DNA from: an uncultured Acidimicrobiales bacterium
GTDB taxonomy: Bacteria; Actinomycetota; Acidimicrobiia; Acidimicrobiales; SZUA-35
NCBI GenBank assembly: GCA_963803875.1
Contig: CAWDOA010000016.1
Location: 619,033 to 683,032, forward strand
Direction of reading: 5' to 3'
Length of the DNA stretch: 64,000 nucleotides
Part shown: one piece after another, positions 2,127-8,649 of the stretch
How positions within the stretch are numbered: position 1 is the stretch's first letter
Layout of the letters: every line of letters starts with the position of its first letter
Position numbers and translations under genes: made by a program
The notes under the pieces: model-generated
Seen by the model: the letters and a program-made list of their open reading frames with translations, nothing else
Databases searched by the model: none
Told to the model about the DNA's origin: nothing

Positions 2127-2423
2127 TTGGAGGTTCCCTCGTGACTAGGCGATGTGGTTACGCCATCACCGTCGTCCCGATCAAGCCCGCTGAACATGCG
2201 GGACAACCCCCAACGTCCCCCGAATGACCCTGAGCGGACCCTGACCCCGAACCCCGACACGCCCTCTAACCCGCCCTGTGTCCCAAATTGCGTCGCCCCA
2301 CCACATCCCTCCCAAGAAGCGTCGCGCCGCCACCCTCCACGTGCTCGCCCGACGCCAGAACGGCCAGATGTCGTGGAGCGACGACAGAACCAGACGCAAC
2401 GTCCCGGTATCCTCTCCGGCCAG

Positions 2424-2496
2424 GCCCTTGTAGCTCAGTGGATAGAGCGTCGGTTTCCTAAACCGTGCGTCGCAAGTTCGATTCTTGCCAAGGGCG
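2424..2496 (+). tRNA. tRNA-Arg (anticodon CCT)
   Basis: 73-nt cloverleaf: acceptor GCCCTTG/CAAGGGC, D arm GCTC-AGTGGATA-GAGC, anticodon loop TTCCTAA (CCT), T arm GCAAG-TTCGATT-CTTGC, discriminator G. CCA is not encoded. Confidence 0.9.
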
Positions 2497-2569
2497 CTCC
2501 GATCTTGGCCGAGTTCAGGTGGCGTGGTCATGTGCTGTGACGCAGTCTCGGCACCCTGGTGCGTTTGTT

Positions 2570-2746
2570 CTACGGCGTCGTGGATAGTGACCCGTATTCT
2601 GTTGGGCGGCTTGTTTGCTGACGCCGAGCATCGCTGCGATCTCGGACCAGCTTTGCCCCTGCGTCCCGTGCAGAGCGCACCGCCGCGACGAGGTCATCAT
2701 CTACCTCGTTGCGTTGTTCGACGAGTTCGGCGGGCCCGATGAACAT
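2570..2746 (-). pseudogene. small helix-turn-helix protein (~58 aa) readable only with two compensating frame steps
   Basis: MFIGPAELVEQRNEVDDDLVAAVRSARDAG continues as QSWSEIAAMLGVSKQAAQQ in the neighbouring frame (step near the GGGG run at 2656-2659). It returns near 2598 to ..YGSLSTTP stop. The HTH-like segment is ORF 2515..2700. Confidence 0.3.
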
Positions 2747-2845
2747 CGTGACTGCGGGGTCCTCTGTTCGAAGGCCCGCCAGTGGTTGCGAATCGCATGC
2801 ATCATGTCGTCGTCGGTCGACAACAAACGACCGGATCGGTAGGCC

Positions 2846-3184
2846 TCACGCACCAGGAATCTGAAAAACGACGACTACGGCGAACATCGCAACGACGATC
2901 GACGCGAGCAGAGGCAGTACCAACAACAGGCCCCGATCACCCTTGCGTATGGCCAGGACCAAGAAGATGAGGGCACCGAACATCGCTACGCCAAGAAACG
3001 GGATCGGCCACAACACCCCGAAAAACACTGCGACGCGTCCTTCAAGAGTCGTCGGCAGAACCGAGCGACCCCACAACGTCCAGCGGGCAGTCTCGGAATC
3101 GGCGGGCTGGTGTTGGTAGGGCTGCTGTTCGTGCTGTACGCCCTCGCCTCGTTTCTTCTCGACCATCTTGGTTCTACGTGTCAT
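2846..3184 (-). CDS. hypothetical membrane protein (2-3 predicted TM segments)
   Basis: ORF with a polar N-terminus, then hydrophobic stretches VAVFFGVLWPIPFLGVAMFGALIFLVLAI and LLLVLPLLASIVVAMFAVVVVF. Start is ATG at 3184 (GTG at 3193 also possible). Confidence 0.45.
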   Translation of the reverse strand: MTRRTKMVEKKRGEGVQHEQQPYQHQPADSETARWTLWGRSVLPTTLEGRVAVFFGVLWPIPFLGVAMFGALIFLVLAIRKGDRGLLLVLPLLASIVVAMFAVVVVFQIPGA

Positions 3185-3445
3185 CGGAACCACCTCTTTC
3201 GGTTTGTGACCACCCGGAAAAATCGGATGTCTCTAGCTTCTTTCTGCCACGTCAGCGTCGCCGCCACCAGAGCCGAATGACCAGATCTTCGGCGAGAGTC
3301 CGTGCTCGGGCCGCCAGACCGGATTGCGGCAGAATGGCCGCCCGACCGAAGAGCTCACCTCGCATATTGATAAACGTTCGATTCGAACGACCCCTCAGCT
3401 TGCAGCGTTTCTGAATATCCCCACTGACGATTCGATCGACTCAGC

Positions 3446-3841
3446 TTGAACGTCGGTACTGATCAGGCCAAGAACTTCAAGGACCTTGCAGCCCCTCTCT
3501 GCGAAGACGCCGAGTCGGCGAAGAAGATCGGCGAGTACAAACAGGCCGTCGAGGCCGAACCCGTTGCACACCAGCTCGGCGAACTCCGTTGCGAACTTGG
3601 AGTCGACGAAGTAGAGCTAGCTGAACGGCTCGGGACGAGCCAGGTCGTTTCGTCGAGACGCATGCTCGCCGATTTGATCGATCTCTTCGGGTGCGAGCGG
3701 TCGTGCGAAGCTGCTCATGTACGTCATGCGTTTCATCCAGACCTCATCCTCCTGATCCCCGGTCCTGCGAGAGACGCTAGTGGAAGGTCGGGCCGCATCG
3801 TCAAGGTGCTGCGGCGTGCACGAGCCAGCTCAACTCGATGA
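3446..3841 (+). CDS. hypothetical protein with XRE-like HTH segment (weak call)
   Basis: The TTG-start ORF contains LGELRCELGVDEVELAERLGTSQVVSS, which resembles an XRE-type HTH. The region looks lower in GC. The C-terminal third looks non-protein-like. Confidence 0.25.
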   Translation: MNVGTDQAKNFKDLAAPLCEDAESAKKIGEYKQAVEAEPVAHQLGELRCELGVDEVELAERLGTSQVVSSRRMLADLIDLFGCERSCEAAHVRHAFHPDLILLIPGPARDASGRSGRIVKVLRRARASSTR

Positions 3842-3912
3842 ACACTTGGCGATCCACGAGTCGGCGTGGGTATCAGTTTGGATGTCCAGAATGGTCCTAG
3901 TCTGGCCACTTC

Positions 3913-4248
3913 ATGGTTCTGGTGGTACTCACGCTTGGTTCGGCAGGAGCCTTTCTGTTCTATGGGTATGAGACGCTGTTTGGGGATCCTCGGCGAGCGG
4001 AGTTCGAGCGCTACGGGATGTCGAGACTGAGAGTCTTTGTCGGATGTATGCAAGTGCTGGGAGCGGTGGGCACTTTGATCGGGCTCGCATCTGCCCCGAT
4101 CGGGGCTGCGGCCGCTGGTGGTTTGACATTGATGATGTTGCTCGGCTTGCTCGTGCGGTACCGGATTCACGATGCGCCTCGGTTGATGGTGCCGGCAGCA
4201 ACGCTCGCTGCGGTCAACGGTGCGCTTCTCTTCCTTCACCTGGGGTGA
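3913..4248 (+). CDS. DoxX-like family small membrane protein
   Basis: 111 aa, about 4 hydrophobic segments, with a pattern typical of DoxX-like proteins (FxxYGxxxxxRxxxGxxxxxGAxGxLxG ... RxHD). Confidence 0.7.
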   Translation: MVLVVLTLGSAGAFLFYGYETLFGDPRRAEFERYGMSRLRVFVGCMQVLGAVGTLIGLASAPIGAAAAGGLTLMMLLGLLVRYRIHDAPRLMVPAATLAAVNGALLFLHLG

Positions 4249-4262
4249 GTCGCGGACACGCA
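4188..4262. repeat. direct repeat copy 1 (3' end of the DoxX-like gene plus 14 nt)
   Basis: 75 nt, about 90% identical to 6953..7027. The first 33 nt are identical (GGTGCCGGCAGCAACGCTCGCTGCGGTCAACGG). Confidence 0.9.
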
Positions 4263-4370
4263 GCGATAGCTTCCATCACGGTGTCGAACTGATCACAGCT
4301 CGGTGAGGCAGTGGTCACACGGCGGCCACTCGACTTAGCACTAAATGCTGAGCGGGTCTTTACTCTGGCC

Positions 4371-5189
4371 ATGTCCTTCGAGAATCTCTATGACTACTCC
4401 TCAACTCAGTTCGAGATAGTACTGAGCGTCTTTACCCTGACGGCCGCAGTGTTTGCTGCGGTGCTCGTGTACTCGCTGGCAACAGCCGGGTCCATTGCCC
4501 CCCGCTATCGCATCACGTCGTATTTGACCGGCGTGGTCATGGTCAGCGCAGTGCTGGAGCTCGGACTGTTGGCCCTCCGATGGTCAGGCTCGTTCTCCTG
4601 GAACGGGGAGAGCTACACCCTCACCGGCGACCTGTTCTCCAACGGTTTCCGCTACATGAACTGGAGCATCGACGTTCCTGTCCTGCTCACACAGCTACTG
4701 GTGGTGGCCGGCATCACCGGAGGTGTGTTCTTCCGCCGGTGGGCCTCCTTCGTCGTGGCCGGTCTCGCAATGATCTGGACCGGCTACGTCGGTCAGTTCG
4801 ACGAAGTCGACGGAGGCGCCCAGTTCTGGATCTGGGGTGCCATCAGCACCGTCTTCTATTTGTGGCTTCTCTATGTCGCCTATCAGACCATCAGCGATGC
4901 CCGTGCGAATGCCTCAGAGTCGGTGAGCCGCCTCTTCGGCATCGTGTGGATCCTCTTCCTCGTCTCCTGGACGATCTACCCCGTTGCATACCTCATGCCC
5001 CAGATCTGGGACACGGCCAACGGTGTGGTTGCACGCAACCTGATCTACAGCTTCGCCGACATCAGCTCCAAGGCTGTGTACGGCATCCTTCTTGCCGTGA
5101 TCGCCCAGAAGGTGAGCGCCGAAAAGGGTTTCAAGCCGGCCATCGAATCGGACTTCTGGTCTGACCGCAAGGCGGAGGTGGCGCCATGA
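4371..5189 (+). CDS. microbial (type I) rhodopsin, NDQ motif = sodium-pumping rhodopsin type
   Basis: Seven hydrophobic segments. Helix C reads RYMNWSIDVPVLLTQ (N/D/Q at the BR D85/T89/D96 positions). The retinal lysine is in FADISSKAVYG. The protein aligns along its length with KR2-type NaR as I recall it (GDLFSNGFRY, WGAIS, IWILFLVSWTIYPVAYLMP). Start is ATG 4371 (MSFENLYDY), with GTG 4311 possible. Confidence 0.9.
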   Translation: MSFENLYDYSSTQFEIVLSVFTLTAAVFAAVLVYSLATAGSIAPRYRITSYLTGVVMVSAVLELGLLALRWSGSFSWNGESYTLTGDLFSNGFRYMNWSIDVPVLLTQLLVVAGITGGVFFRRWASFVVAGLAMIWTGYVGQFDEVDGGAQFWIWGAISTVFYLWLLYVAYQTISDARANASESVSRLFGIVWILFLVSWTIYPVAYLMPQIWDTANGVVARNLIYSFADISSKAVYGILLAVIAQKVSAEKGFKPAIESDFWSDRKAEVAP

Positions 5190-5665
5190 CGACCGTGGCG
5201 ACAACCTCCCCCCTTGACCGGCCCTATCCCGAGCACGAGTCGAAGCCGTTCTTTGCGGAAACGATCACTCTCCTCCGATCGGTCAGGGATCACGATTTCG
5301 ACACGCTGGCTGGATTGTGCGATGACGACTACGGGATCGTCGACATCGCTCCCGACGGGACAAACGTGGCCATCAGGACCCGTGAAGAGTGGGAGGGATG
5401 GTTCCACGGTCTCTTCGGTCAGCTGACCGCAATGGGCGCTGATACCGACAGCGAGATACTGGCCTATGACGCCGTGGGTGCAGAGTCGATGGGCTATTCG
5501 GTACTCGAATTCCGACAGACCTTGAAGGTGGGCGACCTCGTGGCGTCATTCGACTGCATGACCACCATCGTGTGGAAGAAGGCCGACGGCGTCTGGCGCG
5601 AAGCTCGATGGCACGGTTCGGTGTTGTCCAGCGACGTGCCCCCGGGACTGGGAAGCGATTCGTGA
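5186..5665 (+). CDS. NTF2-like / SnoaL-like (DUF4440-type) small protein
   Basis: 159 aa. The ATG overlaps the rhodopsin stop (ATGA, 4-nt overlap). The pattern LLRSVRDHDFDTLAGLCDDDY ... EWEGWF ... TTIVWKKADGVWREARWHGS is typical of the NTF2-like fold. Confidence 0.7.
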   Translation: MTTVATTSPLDRPYPEHESKPFFAETITLLRSVRDHDFDTLAGLCDDDYGIVDIAPDGTNVAIRTREEWEGWFHGLFGQLTAMGADTDSEILAYDAVGAESMGYSVLEFRQTLKVGDLVASFDCMTTIVWKKADGVWREARWHGSVLSSDVPPGLGSDS

Positions 5666-5877
5666 GGTTCAAGAGGAGCCAACAAAGGCATCCACGCTGA
5701 ACAATCTGCCCTATCCCGTGCGAGCCAAACCGCCATTCCGTGTGGCAGGCTTCCTCGCTTTCCTCTTCTCGGTCTACCTCTAGTTCGTGCAGGGCGAGCA
5801 AATGATCGGCATCTTCGTCGGTCTCTGGGTCCGGTCGATCCACTCGCTCGGAACTCTGGTGCTGATCCCCGTTGCAG

Positions 5878-6873
5878 TCAGCTCGAAAGAACTTGCGTGG
5901 GTAGTTCGAGCCCGGCCTCAAACCCCGAGATGTTCTCCATTGTGACCCGGGCAATGGTGGTGAGCGCCGTCTCGGTGAAAAAGGCCTGGTGCCCGGTGAT
6001 CAATACGTTCGGAAACGTCATCAGGCGGGCGAAGGTATCGTCGAGCAACACCTCGGCAGAAAGATCCTCGAAGAACAGTCTTGATTCTTCCTCGTAGACG
6101 TCGAGCCCCAGGTGACCGATCTTGCCCGATTTCAGTCCGTCGATTGCAGCCTCCGCGTCCACGAGCGCACCCCGGCTCGTGTTGATGATCATGACCCCGT
6201 CCTTCATCACAGCCAGCCGTTCTCGATTGACGAGGTGGAAAGTCTCGGGGGTCAGTGGACAGTGGAGCGAGATGATGTCCGAGGCAGCGAGCACGTCATC
6301 GACCGGTGCGTAGGTTCCGCCCAACTCGAGGATCCGCTGGTTCTCGAACGGGTCAGCAGCAAGCAGTACGGTGCCGAACCCTGCCATGATCTCAGCGAAA
6401 CACGCGCCGATTTCGCCGGTGCCGATGATGCCGACCGTGCGACCATGAAGGTCGAAGCCGAGCAACCCGTCGAGGGCGAAGTTGCCATCCCGAACGCGGT
6501 TGTACGCTCGGTGGATCTTGCGGTTGAGGGACAGGATCAGGCCGACGCAGTGCTCGGCGACCGCGTGAGGCGAGTACCGGGGGACTCGCGCCACTGTCAG
6601 CCCCAGCCGGGTGGCAGCGTCGAGATCGACATGGTTGAAGCCGGCCGAGCGGAGTGCTACCAGGTTCGTTCCGCCCTCAGCGAGGACCTCGAGTGTGGTA
6701 GCGCCGAGATCGTCGTTCACGAACGGGCATACCACCTCAGCGCCTGAGGCCAGTCTGGCTGTGCCCGGATTCAGGCGGGTCTCGTAGAAGTGGAGTTCGT
6801 GGCCTGCGGTCGTGTTTGCAGCGCGCAGGAAGTGCTCGTCGTACGACCTCGCGCTGAAGACTGCTACACGCAT
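5878..6873 (-). CDS. ldhA: D-lactate dehydrogenase-like D-isomer 2-hydroxyacid dehydrogenase
   Basis: 331 aa, collinear with E. coli LdhA as recalled ([83 protein letters not shown]). Confidence 0.85.
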
Positions 6874-7031: not shown

Positions 7032-7418
7032 CTACCGGCCGTCGTGGTTTCCGCCGTTGAGGATCGCCGCTACTGCTGCTCCGGTGAAGACTGAGATGGC
7101 AGGTATGGAGCGCTTGAGGGGATCCTTGACTTTGACGTGCATTCCGATTGCCCCGAGCATCATTGTGGCGAGGCCGATTGATGCTGGCCGAGCGATCTTG
7201 GGGACGAAGAGCCCGATCAGCATCATGATGGCGAGGCTCACCTTCGTGGCTCCGACTACGTACATGGTTCTTTCCGAGAGTCCGTATTCCTCAAACTCTT
7301 CTCGCATGTTCGTTGCGTCACCGCCTCGATATCCGGTGTCTTTGTTGAATCGGTTGAACCAGACGTTGAGGAGCCAGAGTGCGGATGCGGTTTGGGCGAT
7401 CTTGCCGATGATGGTCAT
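7032..7418 (-). CDS. DoxX-like family membrane protein (second, divergent copy)
   Basis: 128 aa with hydrophobic segments. The EEFEEYGLSERTMYVVGATKVSLAIMMLIGL ... MHVKVKD pattern matches the DoxX-like family. Confidence 0.65.
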   Translation of the reverse strand: MTIIGKIAQTASALWLLNVWFNRFNKDTGYRGGDATNMREEFEEYGLSERTMYVVGATKVSLAIMMLIGLFVPKIARPASIGLATMMLGAIGMHVKVKDPLKRSIPAISVFTGAAVAAILNGGNHDGR

Positions 7419-7719: not shown

Positions 7720-8649
7720 TCACGACCTCGCGGGGCCGGACGCGGGGAGTGGTTGGCGGAACAGTCCGTCCGGGATCGGGGCGTTGCAGCGCACTAATGC
7801 GAGTTGCCAGGATGGTGATGCGCCGAGTGCCCATCGGAGTGCGCCCGTAGCGTTCTTTCCGATTCCGGCCGCGCGTTTGCCTGGCTCGACGTCCAGTTGG
7901 GTTCGGATGTCGGAGGGAATCGTGGTCAGGGCGGCTTCGAACAGCAGCCGGTAGCCGATCTTGACCGGCGGGTTCAGCGGAGGGTTGCGGAGAAAGCTGA
8001 TGGCGCTCGCCTGTGCTTTGGTCGCGACGCGATCGGGATGGTTGGTGATCCAGTGAGAGAGTTCTTCCGCTGTTTCGGGAAGCGGATCAGCACCCAAGAG
8101 CTTGCCGATCCGGGTCTGTTCGGCCACAAAACGGTCAGCGTCCGCGACGCTGAGCCGGTCTGGGCCGAACGCCTGGTAGGAAGCAAGGAACGAGTCGGTC
8201 AAGACGTTGTGGACCCATGCCGCCATCTCGGGACGGCTGGCACTGTAGGGGAGGTTCCGTTCAGACAATCCTTTCACGGGACGGTGTGCTCGACGAACAA
8301 CCTGCACGGCGGATTCAACCTCGGGCATCGCCCCATAGGTGGTTTCAGTGACATACACCGAGGTACGCGACAATCGTCCGAGAGGGTCCGAGCGATAGGT
8401 CGAGTGGTCCTCCACCCCGGCTACAACTTCAGCGTGGGCAGACTGGACCACCAGTGCCCGGATCCCTCCCACGAACACCGCAGCATCGCCGAGCACTCGC
8501 CACGACACCGACTCGGGTCCGAGCAGTCCAGGATCGCCGGGGAAGTCCAGAGTGTTCGCCAACGGTGTTGGGCCGTGTGAGAACAGGCCCGTCATCGCCG
8601 ACACAACCGGGTCACGAAGCTTGCGGCTCAAATTGCTCATGGCCAACAC
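7720..8649 (-). CDS. DUF2236 / MpaB-type oxygenase family protein
   Basis: 309-aa ORF. The segment SVSWRVLGDAAVFVGGIRALVVQSAHAEVVAGVEDHS is characteristic of DUF2236. The C-terminal ~40 aa look less protein-like. ATG at 8640 is an alternative start. Confidence 0.65.
   Translation of the reverse strand: MLAMSNLSRKLRDPVVSAMTGLFSHGPTPLANTLDFPGDPGLLGPESVSWRVLGDAAVFVGGIRALVVQSAHAEVVAGVEDHSTYRSDPLGRLSRTSVYVTETTYGAMPEVESAVQVVRRAHRPVKGLSERNLPYSASRPEMAAWVHNVLTDSFLASYQAFGPDRLSVADADRFVAEQTRIGKLLGADPLPETAEELSHWITNHPDRVATKAQASAISFLRNPPLNPPVKIGYRLLFEAALTTIPSDIRTQLDVEPGKRAAGIGKNATGALRWALGASPSWQLALVRCNAPIPDGLFRQPLPASGPARS

Follow-up and report, generated by a model that had tools for sequence, protein, structure and literature searches.

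A 64-kb stretch of the genome of an uncultured Acidimicrobiales bacterium (hereafter the window) carries a type-1 rhodopsin gene whose stop codon overlaps the start codon of a second gene, encoding a small NTF2-like protein (Table 1). In the sequence gcgccATGAcgacc (window 5181-5194), the ATG of the NTF2 gene occupies 5186-5188 and the rhodopsin TGA 5187-5189, exactly where the initial annotation had placed the ATGA overlap. The findings presented here indicate that the NTF2 gene is likely an accessory gene of retinal-based phototrophy, apparently one that has not been described: a full-text literature search, outside which most subscription-journal papers fall, returned no paper linking NTF2, SnoaL or DUF4440 proteins to microbial rhodopsins.

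Table 1. Features of the window, and gene arrangements that recur at the loci of related NTF2 genes
Feature	Position or occurrence	Strand	Basis or remark
tRNA-Arg(CCT)	2424-2497	+	1.9 kb upstream of the rhodopsin gene
DoxX_2 membrane protein, directly upstream of the rhodopsin gene	3913..4248	+	Pfam DoxX_2, E 2.3e-9; context only, link uncertain
Type-1 rhodopsin, 272 amino acids, NDQ, ErNaR-like putative light-driven Na+ pump	4371..5189	+	Pfam, helix C, 8qle
ATGA stop/start overlap, rhodopsin to NTF2 gene	5186..5189	+	Read directly from the sequence
NTF2-like (SnoaL_3) soluble protein, 159 amino acids, conserved rhodopsin-linked gene	5186..5665	+	Pfam, homologues, AF2, Foldseek
Second DoxX_2 gene	7032-7418	-	Pfam
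MpaB/Lcp-family oxygenase homologue	7720..8649	-	Pfam MPAB_Lcp_cat, E 1.3e-45; weaker evidence for association
Rhodopsin upstream of NTF2 gene, same strand	52/64 adjacent pairs		Most lineages
NTF2 gene upstream of rhodopsin, same strand	5/64 adjacent pairs		NDQ lineage: L070, L072, L075, L078, L079
NTF2 gene and rhodopsin convergent	5/64 adjacent pairs		Cytophagales
NTF2 gene and rhodopsin divergent	2/64 adjacent pairs		L054, L058
Regulator with HTH_17 and two B12-binding domains (CarH/LitR-like)	15/108 loci		Beside the rhodopsin-NTF2 unit, mostly divergent from the rhodopsin
NmrA-like / 3-beta-HSD-like NAD epimerase, one orthologous cluster (c4)	10/108 loci, also L115-118		Mostly directly beside the NTF2 gene
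Heliorhodopsin	6/108 loci		NCBIfam HeR, 317 bits vs cut-off 100; often directly after the NTF2 gene
Photolyase-type FAD-binding protein	6/108 loci
DUF4130 and radical-SAM pair	5/108 loci		Bacteroidota

The products of the overlapping genes

The upstream gene matches Pfam Bac_rhodopsin (E 3.6e-34). Its start was assigned to the ATG at 4371, and not to the GTG at 4311 given in the automatic list of open reading frames (ORFs), because an identical 272-residue protein is on record (P0265) and the ATGTCCTTCG start is conserved among relatives. Helix C reads RYMNWSIDVPVLLTQ, corresponding to the NDQ motif, and the Schiff-base lysine lies within DISSKAVYG. The best solved relative is ErNaR (8qle, E 2.8e-68), followed by chloride-pump rhodopsins and KR2-type sodium pumps. 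NDQ subgroup 2 is defined by an additional glutamate in helix B, E64 in ErNaR (PMC11006869), and the alignment to 8qle places E63 of the window rhodopsin (in VLELG) on this residue. The protein thus has the N, D and Q positions, the retinal lysine and the helix-B glutamate of the ErNaR type, and the motif, the best match and E63 together identify it as an ErNaR-like putative sodium pump of NDQ subgroup 2. No operon is mentioned in the ErNaR paper (PMC11006869). A promoter and terminator scan of 3300-6100 gave nothing exceeding the shuffled expectation, and no conserved operator was found in the aligned upstream regions of six NDQ rhodopsins.

The 159-residue product of the downstream gene matches Pfam SnoaL_3 (PF13474) over residues 30-147 (31 bits vs a cut-off of 22, E 3.6e-7), which bears out its earlier description as NTF2-like; DUF4440, SnoaL_2 and CaMKII_AD fell below the Pfam thresholds. 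It has 207 homologues, for most of which PF13474 matches are also on record as precomputed, and with sequence identities of 45-86% across two phyla the ORF must be considered a real gene. A profile search of 1.84 billion representatives returned 144 matches at E<=1e-3, 24 of them at E<=1e-30, and no multi-domain fusions. So small a number in so large a set marks the family as a narrow branch of the NTF2-like superfamily, itself very large.

Conservation within the family is pronounced. The alignment spanning both phyla (A1) contains 27 invariant columns, among them D46, D48, D53, R64, W69, W72, Y94, F109, Q111 and F122, as well as W130, K131, W137, E139, R141, H143 and S145, and C45 is nearly invariant. 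The structure was predicted with AF2 (AlphaFold2) from an alignment of actinobacterial members only (A2), giving a predicted local distance difference test score (pLDDT) of 88.7 and a predicted template modelling score (pTM) of 0.84. The model has helices at 23-34, 38-44 and 66-82, and long antiparallel strands at 51-54, 60-63, 85-98, 102-115, 118-133 and 136-150: the alpha+beta cone of the NTF2 superfamily, with helices set against a long curved sheet. Foldseek returned 367 PDB matches at E<=1e-3, and the best 50 of the 367 are all NTF2-fold proteins. These are CaMKII hub domains (template modelling (TM) score ~0.65), counting one putative association domain from a bacterium, together with scytalone dehydratase and bile-acid 7-alpha dehydratase.

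The CaMKII hubs and bacterial hub-like proteins (PF08332; PDB 1hkx, 7urw, 3gwr) are the closest relatives by fold, among the matches listed, and by profile, being the only PDB entries detectable from sequence with the family profile (E 2.9e-5). They have in common with the NTF2 family the C-terminal pattern T.VW...DG.W.....H.S, which is therefore a hallmark of the clan and not a functional signature. By contrast, the window protein scores below the PF08332 threshold (13.9 vs 22.1 bits), which places it outside the CaMKII association domain family, and it has no kinase context.

Judging from the strand limits of the model, with two-residue turns at 116-117 and 134-135, residues F109, Q111, F122, C124, I128, W130, W137, E139, R141, H143 and S145 would share one face of the sheet. 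Since this face is more hydrophobic and much more conserved, it is probably the concave pocket side, forming an aromatic cage whose bottom is polar and charged. A pocket of this predicted shape would be suited to an amphipathic lipid whose head group is polar. The three cavity arginines of the hubs were also mapped by alignment to a hidden Markov model (HMM), falling on E108, I128 and G144; this assignment was inconsistent with the strand register of the model and was not used.

Linkage of the NTF2 gene to rhodopsins

Only the NTF2 protein served as the query in collecting related loci (n=108) from public collections, so that no bias for or against rhodopsins entered the sample. One-genome-per-species contigs provided 25 of them, 12 labelled Actinomycetota (mostly Acidimicrobiales) and 13 Bacteroidota (Cytophagales families), with NTF2 identities of 44-82%; 80 came from metagenome contigs and 3 from contig look-ups. 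Rhodopsins were detected with an HMM built from those of the first 25-locus set, and genes in the relatives were called with our own heuristic, based on ORFs and G+C content at third codon positions (GC3). A rhodopsin was detected in 68/108 loci and was adjacent to the NTF2 gene in 64/108. Among the 60 loci with at least 1 kb of sequence on both sides, it lay within 600 bp in 38 and at 2-4 kb in 3, with none in 19. The loci are not phylogenetically independent, and the linkage holds after clustering of the NTF2 proteins at 90% identity: in 82 clusters, a rhodopsin was adjacent in 52, nearby in 4 and absent in 15, while 11 were uninformative, which amounts to adjacency in 52/71 informative clusters. 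Adjacency in 38/60 loci compares with about 0.1% expected for a random gene, by our own estimate for a genome of ~3000 genes with one or two rhodopsins, so the pairing is far beyond chance. The initial annotation had posed co-occurrence as the test that could refute its proposal; the co-occurrence holds for NDQ and several DTE rhodopsins in two phyla.

The partner rhodopsins comprise 14 of the NDQ type and 44 of the DTE type. Helix C of the latter occurs in three flavours: ..LLLAEL, ..LLLVET and, in Bacteroidota, the proteorhodopsin-like RYIDWTLTVPLMCVEF. These types are only ~30% identical to the window rhodopsin. The linkage is independent of which ion the rhodopsin pumps. The clade of the window's own NTF2 protein (at least 72% identity) illustrates the point, since it contains members linked to NDQ rhodopsins (the window, L001, L002), members linked to DTE rhodopsins (L005, L006, L030, L037) and unlinked members (L003, L004, L028, L029); the NTF2 protein is thus indifferent to the type of the adjoining rhodopsin. 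Close junctions, at which stop and start codons overlap or are no more than 9 nt apart, are a repeated feature of three rhodopsin types: -4 nt in the NDQ pairs of the window, L001, L002 and L031 (-14 nt in L007 and L008), -4 nt in the DTE-VET pairs L089, L092, L097, L098 and L107, and -1 to +3 nt in the Bacteroidota-type pairs L023-25, L090, L091, L096 and L106. The gaps in DTE-AEL pairs are 65-130 nt. In the reverse test, starting from homologues of the window rhodopsin, a member of the NTF2 family was found at 2/3 acidimicrobial NDQ loci. With P0343 (rhodopsin 78% identical to that of the window) it lies immediately upstream, and with P0375 (64%) it lies 2 kb downstream, in an operon of NTF2, FMN reductase and NmrA-like epimerase genes beside DoxX.

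Could such a pairing arise with no functional link, for example through repeated insertion of rhodopsin genes next to a conserved gene that was already resident? The switching of partner type within one NTF2 clade and the unlinked state of some close relatives are consistent with hitch-hiking of this kind, as is the situation of the window pair, close to the tRNA-Arg gene and in a stretch of slightly lower G+C (0.585-0.60 across ~2400-6300, vs 0.63-0.65 on either side). However, the association extends over two phyla, four orientations, at least four rhodopsin flavours and the great part of the informative clusters, and the overlapping stop and start codons evolved repeatedly. Moreover, the flanking genes are otherwise unconserved: the constant element is the pair, not the insertion site. 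Because the association is so broad, we disfavour hitch-hiking and regard it as highly improbable. The low-G+C stretch itself may be a small acquired islet with the DoxX, rhodopsin and NTF2 genes. The two DoxX_2 genes of the window flank its rhodopsin-NTF2-dehydrogenase stretch.

Light-related neighbours and genes for retinal synthesis

The neighbours of the NTF2 genes were clustered, representatives were annotated, and their occurrence was counted over the 108 fetched loci. One recurrent neighbour encodes a regulator with a helix-turn-helix (HTH) domain and two B12-binding domains. It was found in L043 (3181-3948, -), L046, L048, L049, L063, L066, L074, L084 and L108, in L001 (994-1851, -), L009, L055 and L088, and in L050 and L052, two loci that lack a rhodopsin and in which the regulator gene and the NTF2 gene are directly divergent. 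The arrangement resembles the CarH/LitR regulons in that such a regulator stands beside the rhodopsin-NTF2 unit, alongside photolyase genes. It differs in that the regulator reaches only 49 bits, far short of the 400-bit cut-off for the CarH equivalog, and that none is present in the window. LitR/CarH regulons are reported mainly for carotenoid genes (PMC6739363, PMC11519972), and among the LitR/CarH targets that our literature search turned up there was no rhodopsin-NTF2 operon. The recurrence of this regulator suggests that in uncultured Actinomycetota (Acidimicrobiia) the expression of rhodopsins is under light control that depends on B12.

Heliorhodopsin genes were found in L043 (5510-6268, -), L046, L047, L049, L030 and L054, and in L043, L046 and L049 the NTF2 gene lies between the type-1 rhodopsin and the heliorhodopsin. 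In L047 and L049, the heliorhodopsin adjoins a photolyase-type FAD-binding gene. The NmrA-like epimerase ranks second in constancy among the neighbours of the NTF2 gene, and the loci that have it include L026 (8744-9631), L027, L052, L064, L068, L077, L079, L032 and L002. In L115-L118 (L115 7275-9350, -), the NTF2, FMN reductase and epimerase genes belong to a single operon, which is convergent with the gene of an NDQ rhodopsin; a DoxX gene lies beside the NTF2 gene and a glyoxalase-family gene nearby. In the Cytophagales, a DUF4130 and radical-SAM/HhH pair, putatively for DNA repair, lies just upstream of the NTF2 gene in L015 (3732-5736), L018, L019, L021 and L104, all of which have the NTF2 gene convergent with a proteorhodopsin-like gene. 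A short-chain dehydrogenase/reductase (SDR) was considered as a further conserved neighbour and dropped, its 17 loci being about the chance rate given the abundance of SDRs. Two rhodopsin-less loci of Cyclobacteriaceae, L014 (5206-5982, +) and L022 (2586-3362), encode a 258-residue protein with a weak TspO/MBR match (E 1e-4); in L014 its gene directly precedes the NTF2 gene, and the two share a strand.

The NTF2 gene thus belongs to a wider light-related neighbourhood that includes the CarH/LitR-like regulator, heliorhodopsin and photolyase. The initial annotation had proposed a co-translated two-gene unit, a description that the wider neighbourhood and the unlinked members of the family show to be too narrow. 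The window itself holds only the rhodopsin, NTF2 and MpaB-like genes of this recurrent set.

These neighbours bring up the notion that the NTF2 protein is a light-stress enzyme, co-induced with the rhodopsin, for instance by the CarH/LitR-like regulator, and mechanistically independent of it. Its task would be to detoxify or repair a product of photo-oxidation, such as a quinone, an aldehyde, or a lipid or terpenoid epoxide. Consistent with this are the recurrent photolyase, the photolyase-related protein, the CarH/LitR-like regulator and the DUF4130 and radical-SAM repair genes, the NTF2-FMN reductase-NmrA operon with its DoxX and glyoxalase neighbours (L115-L118), and the epimerase directly beside the NTF2 gene in most of 10 loci. 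The regulator is paired with the NTF2 gene in L050 and L052 with the rhodopsin absent from the locus, about a quarter of the lineages have no rhodopsin nearby, and the many invariant Asp, Glu, Arg, His and Lys residues suggest catalysis. However, co-regulation alone leaves unexplained why adjacency persists through four gene orders and why overlaps occur in three rhodopsin clades. The rhodopsin is also by far the most constant neighbour (68 loci, vs at most 17 for the SDR, which is about chance, and 15 for the regulator), and photolyase is present in 6 loci only. We therefore consider a light-stress enzyme of this kind rather unlikely.

Another set of neighbours concerns the source of retinal. 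Cultured Micromonospora and Blastococcus have homologues of the window rhodopsin (55-57% identity) without an NTF2 gene and with the retinal synthase gene blh (PF15461) adjacent (L109, L110); in Blastococcus, blh occupies the downstream same-strand slot in which the window has the NTF2 gene. In Micromonospora sp. WMMD882 (L109), blh lies beside two divergent rhodopsin genes (5177-5875, -, and 6001-6825, +), one an NDQ homologue 57% identical to that of the window and the other a shorter Bac_rhodopsin of 232 residues. This strain could serve as a culturable comparison system. With an HMM built from the two blh sequences of Micromonospora and Blastococcus, which may miss divergent copies, blh was detected in 2/108 NTF2 loci (L074, L084) and nowhere in the 64 kb of the window. 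No ORF of the size of blh is present in the gaps next to the rhodopsins of Bacteroidota. Since blh and the rhodopsin-NTF2 unit occur together in L074 and L084, the NTF2 gene is not simply a replacement for blh. Opsin-blh pairs are similar in that the second gene lies directly beside the opsin, is often co-transcribed and accompanies any pump type. By contrast, Blh is a polytopic membrane dioxygenase (PF15461), whereas the window protein is a soluble NTF2 fold with no BCD match, and hence no member of the Blh/Brp family.

An MpaB/Lcp-like gene was found in 7/109 loci, the window and six others. It is three genes from the pair in the window and one to three genes from it in the other six, L009 (2956-4059), L012, L053, L058, L061 (1061-2209) and L081, where the orthologues form one BLAST cluster (616 bits to the HMM of that cluster). 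Among the MpaB/Lcp proteins are enzymes that cleave isoprenoid C=C bonds. Because of this activity, and because no blh is detectable in the window, the oxygenase is a candidate for the retinal-forming enzyme of rhodopsin bacteria that lack blh. In one actinobacterium without blh, retinal is still made, by a route that is not known (PMC7734400). Our literature search, outside which most subscription-journal papers fall, found no paper tying MpaB/DUF2236 proteins to microbial rhodopsins.

If the oxygenase has this role, the NTF2 protein could belong to an alternative retinal route that replaces blh, for example by presenting a carotenoid to the oxygenase. The scarcity of blh at the NTF2 loci, its presence beside the Micromonospora and Blastococcus rhodopsins that lack an NTF2 gene, the recurrence of the oxygenase beside the pair and the precedent of the blh-less actinobacterium (PMC7734400) would all fit, and an NTF2-like helper for terpenoid oxidation, FoTO1, has been reported. 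Yet L074 and L084 have blh as well as the rhodopsin-NTF2 unit, the MpaB-like gene occurs in 7/109 loci only, and the rarity of blh was established at the level of loci, with an HMM from two sequences. We judge a replacement route to be very unlikely.

Candidate functions of the NTF2-like protein

The initial annotation had remarked that an NTF2-like gene is not among the usual rhodopsin partners, these being blh, crt genes or transducers, and the comparisons agree with this: besides the lack of a BCD match, the fold is not that of ASRT. ASRT is an all-beta protein that partners Anabaena sensory rhodopsin. The likeness is that of a small soluble protein encoded in the same operon, directly after the rhodopsin. 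The difference is that the window protein is an alpha+beta NTF2 cone and that its partners carry the pump motifs NDQ or DTE, which sets it apart from the ASRT type.

A role like that of ASRT may nevertheless be envisaged, in which the NTF2 protein would dock on the cytoplasmic face of the rhodopsin as a soluble transducer, a regulator or a scaffold for assembly, and might form an oligomer like the CaMKII hub. Translational coupling is typical of stoichiometric partners, and the hubs, its closest relatives in sequence and fold among the matches listed, are oligomerisation modules that build rings of 12-16 subunits. In the actinobacterial members, the disordered N- and C-terminal tails contain conserved SPLD.P and SSDVPPEL motifs that resemble docking peptides. 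One family member, P0124, has 256 residues, with a hydrophobic N-terminal extension of ~110 residues and two or three putative membrane helices; this may be a membrane-anchored variant, in line with a partner at the membrane, or a mis-called start. Against such a partnership, the tails are absent from Bacteroidota members. The C-terminal motif SAE[EK]G[FY] on the cytoplasmic side of the rhodopsin, which we considered as a docking signature, was rejected, being present in linked and unlinked NDQ rhodopsins alike. The pump-motif partners are ~30% identical between types, while the NTF2 proteins are ~75% identical, which is hard to square with a co-evolving interface. This promiscuity weakens the case for a partner at the protein level, which we hold to be distinctly unlikely.

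The same comparison supports a different conclusion. As the partners are only ~30% identical between types and the NTF2 proteins ~75% identical, the target of the NTF2 protein is most likely something common to all these rhodopsins. Since the NTF2 gene also occurs between a type-1 rhodopsin and a heliorhodopsin, the likeliest common element is retinal or a carotenoid-derived lipid. Proteins of the NTF2 fold commonly have hydrophobic isoprenoids and polyketides as ligands, which they bind or transform. We tentatively favour, at a little less than even chance, an accessory role in the handling of the chromophore, be it binding, delivery, buffering or processing. Also in its favour are the adjacency kept across gene orders and pump types, the presence of blh in the corresponding slot of Blastococcus, the CarH/LitR-like regulator beside many of the pairs, and the narrowness and strong conservation of the family. 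In the mechanism we envisage, the protein would be a cytoplasmic NTF2-fold member of a small, sharply delimited family, acting as a dedicated accessory of retinal photosystems. Its target would be the retinal chromophore or a carotenoid-derived lipid, held in the aromatic, polar-bottomed pocket of the cone. The protein would deliver, buffer, re-isomerise or otherwise process this lipid, and would thereby serve the formation and upkeep of holo-rhodopsin in the light.

Two groups of NTF2-fold proteins are relevant to whether it would bind or catalyse. The first is the C-terminal domain (CTD) of the orange carotenoid protein (OCP) and its homologues (CTDH), with which the initial annotation had drawn an analogy. 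They have in common with the window protein the superfamily fold and the notion of a soluble protein that could hold a polyene. The analogy did not hold up beyond that level: there was no PF02136 match at E<=0.1, and no OCP or CTDH among the 50 Foldseek matches listed. In OCP-CTD/CTDH, a keto-carotenoid is bound in the pocket through a hydrogen-bonding Tyr/Trp pair; the NTF2 family has an invariant Y94 and several invariant Trp residues. The second group consists of enzymes, namely scytalone dehydratase, BaiE, the SnoaL cyclases, ketosteroid isomerase and limonene epoxide hydrolase. They have the fold, and the conserved sheet face of the window protein likewise mixes aromatics with invariant acid and base residues. 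The differences are an identity of 9-15%, catalytic motifs that are not mappable onto the window protein, and the lack of a polyketide, steroid or bile-acid gene context at the NTF2 loci. A SnoaL cyclase in particular is not indicated, with no SnoaL match and no polyketide synthase genes among the neighbours examined in the window and its relatives. Given the number of invariant charged residues, the sequence leans toward an enzyme rather than a binder.

Several points weigh against chromophore handling. Within 1-6 kb, 19/60 loci or 15/71 informative clusters are without a rhodopsin, so that about a quarter to a third of the family members have none nearby, and at these loci the NTF2 gene is surrounded by unrelated housekeeping genes, none of them a conserved partner in place of the rhodopsin. 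The third acidimicrobial NDQ locus of the reverse test, P0372 (68%), has no NTF2 family member within 6 kb. Retinal is membrane-soluble, and bacteria are not known to need a soluble carrier for it. The photolyase, FMN reductase, NmrA-like reductase, DoxX and DNA-repair radical-SAM neighbours fit a general light-stress role equally well, and the closest folds among the matches listed belong to CaMKII hubs and dehydratases rather than to any known binder of carotenoids.

A more far-reaching form of the chromophore-handling proposal, which we consider unlikely, is that the retinal photosystems of bacteria have a third, so far unrecognised component in the NTF2 protein, which would handle retinal as a soluble enzyme or chaperone. 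It may take one of two forms. The protein could be a dark isomerase that returns photo-scrambled cis-retinals to the all-trans form by means of the near-invariant Cys45 and the cluster of Asp, Glu, Arg and His residues. It could be a carrier that hands retinal to new opsins of any type, heliorhodopsin included. In some lineages it might also act with the neighbouring MpaB/Lcp-type oxygenase in a blh-independent route to retinal. Bacterial rhodopsin phototrophy is usually described as minimal, consisting of an opsin and the genes for making retinal. A third gene conserved beside sodium-pump and several proton-pump lineages, in Actinomycetota and Bacteroidota, would be an overlooked part of the system, which might serve in chromophore delivery, in the quality control of isomers, in antenna handling or in photoprotection. 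The NTF2 family offers a concrete, small and easily expressed target for exploring this, and the MpaB/Lcp-type oxygenase is a second candidate, bearing on the retinal source of rhodopsin bacteria without blh (PMC7734400).

Finally, the NTF2 gene is present as tandem paralogues at three loci: L003 (6004-6456 and 6569-6988, the copies being ~47% identical to each other), L028 (8001-8465 and 8533-9054) and L032 (809-1258 and 1464-1889). The tandem copies have no rhodopsin nearby in L003 and L028, and follow an NDQ rhodopsin in L032.

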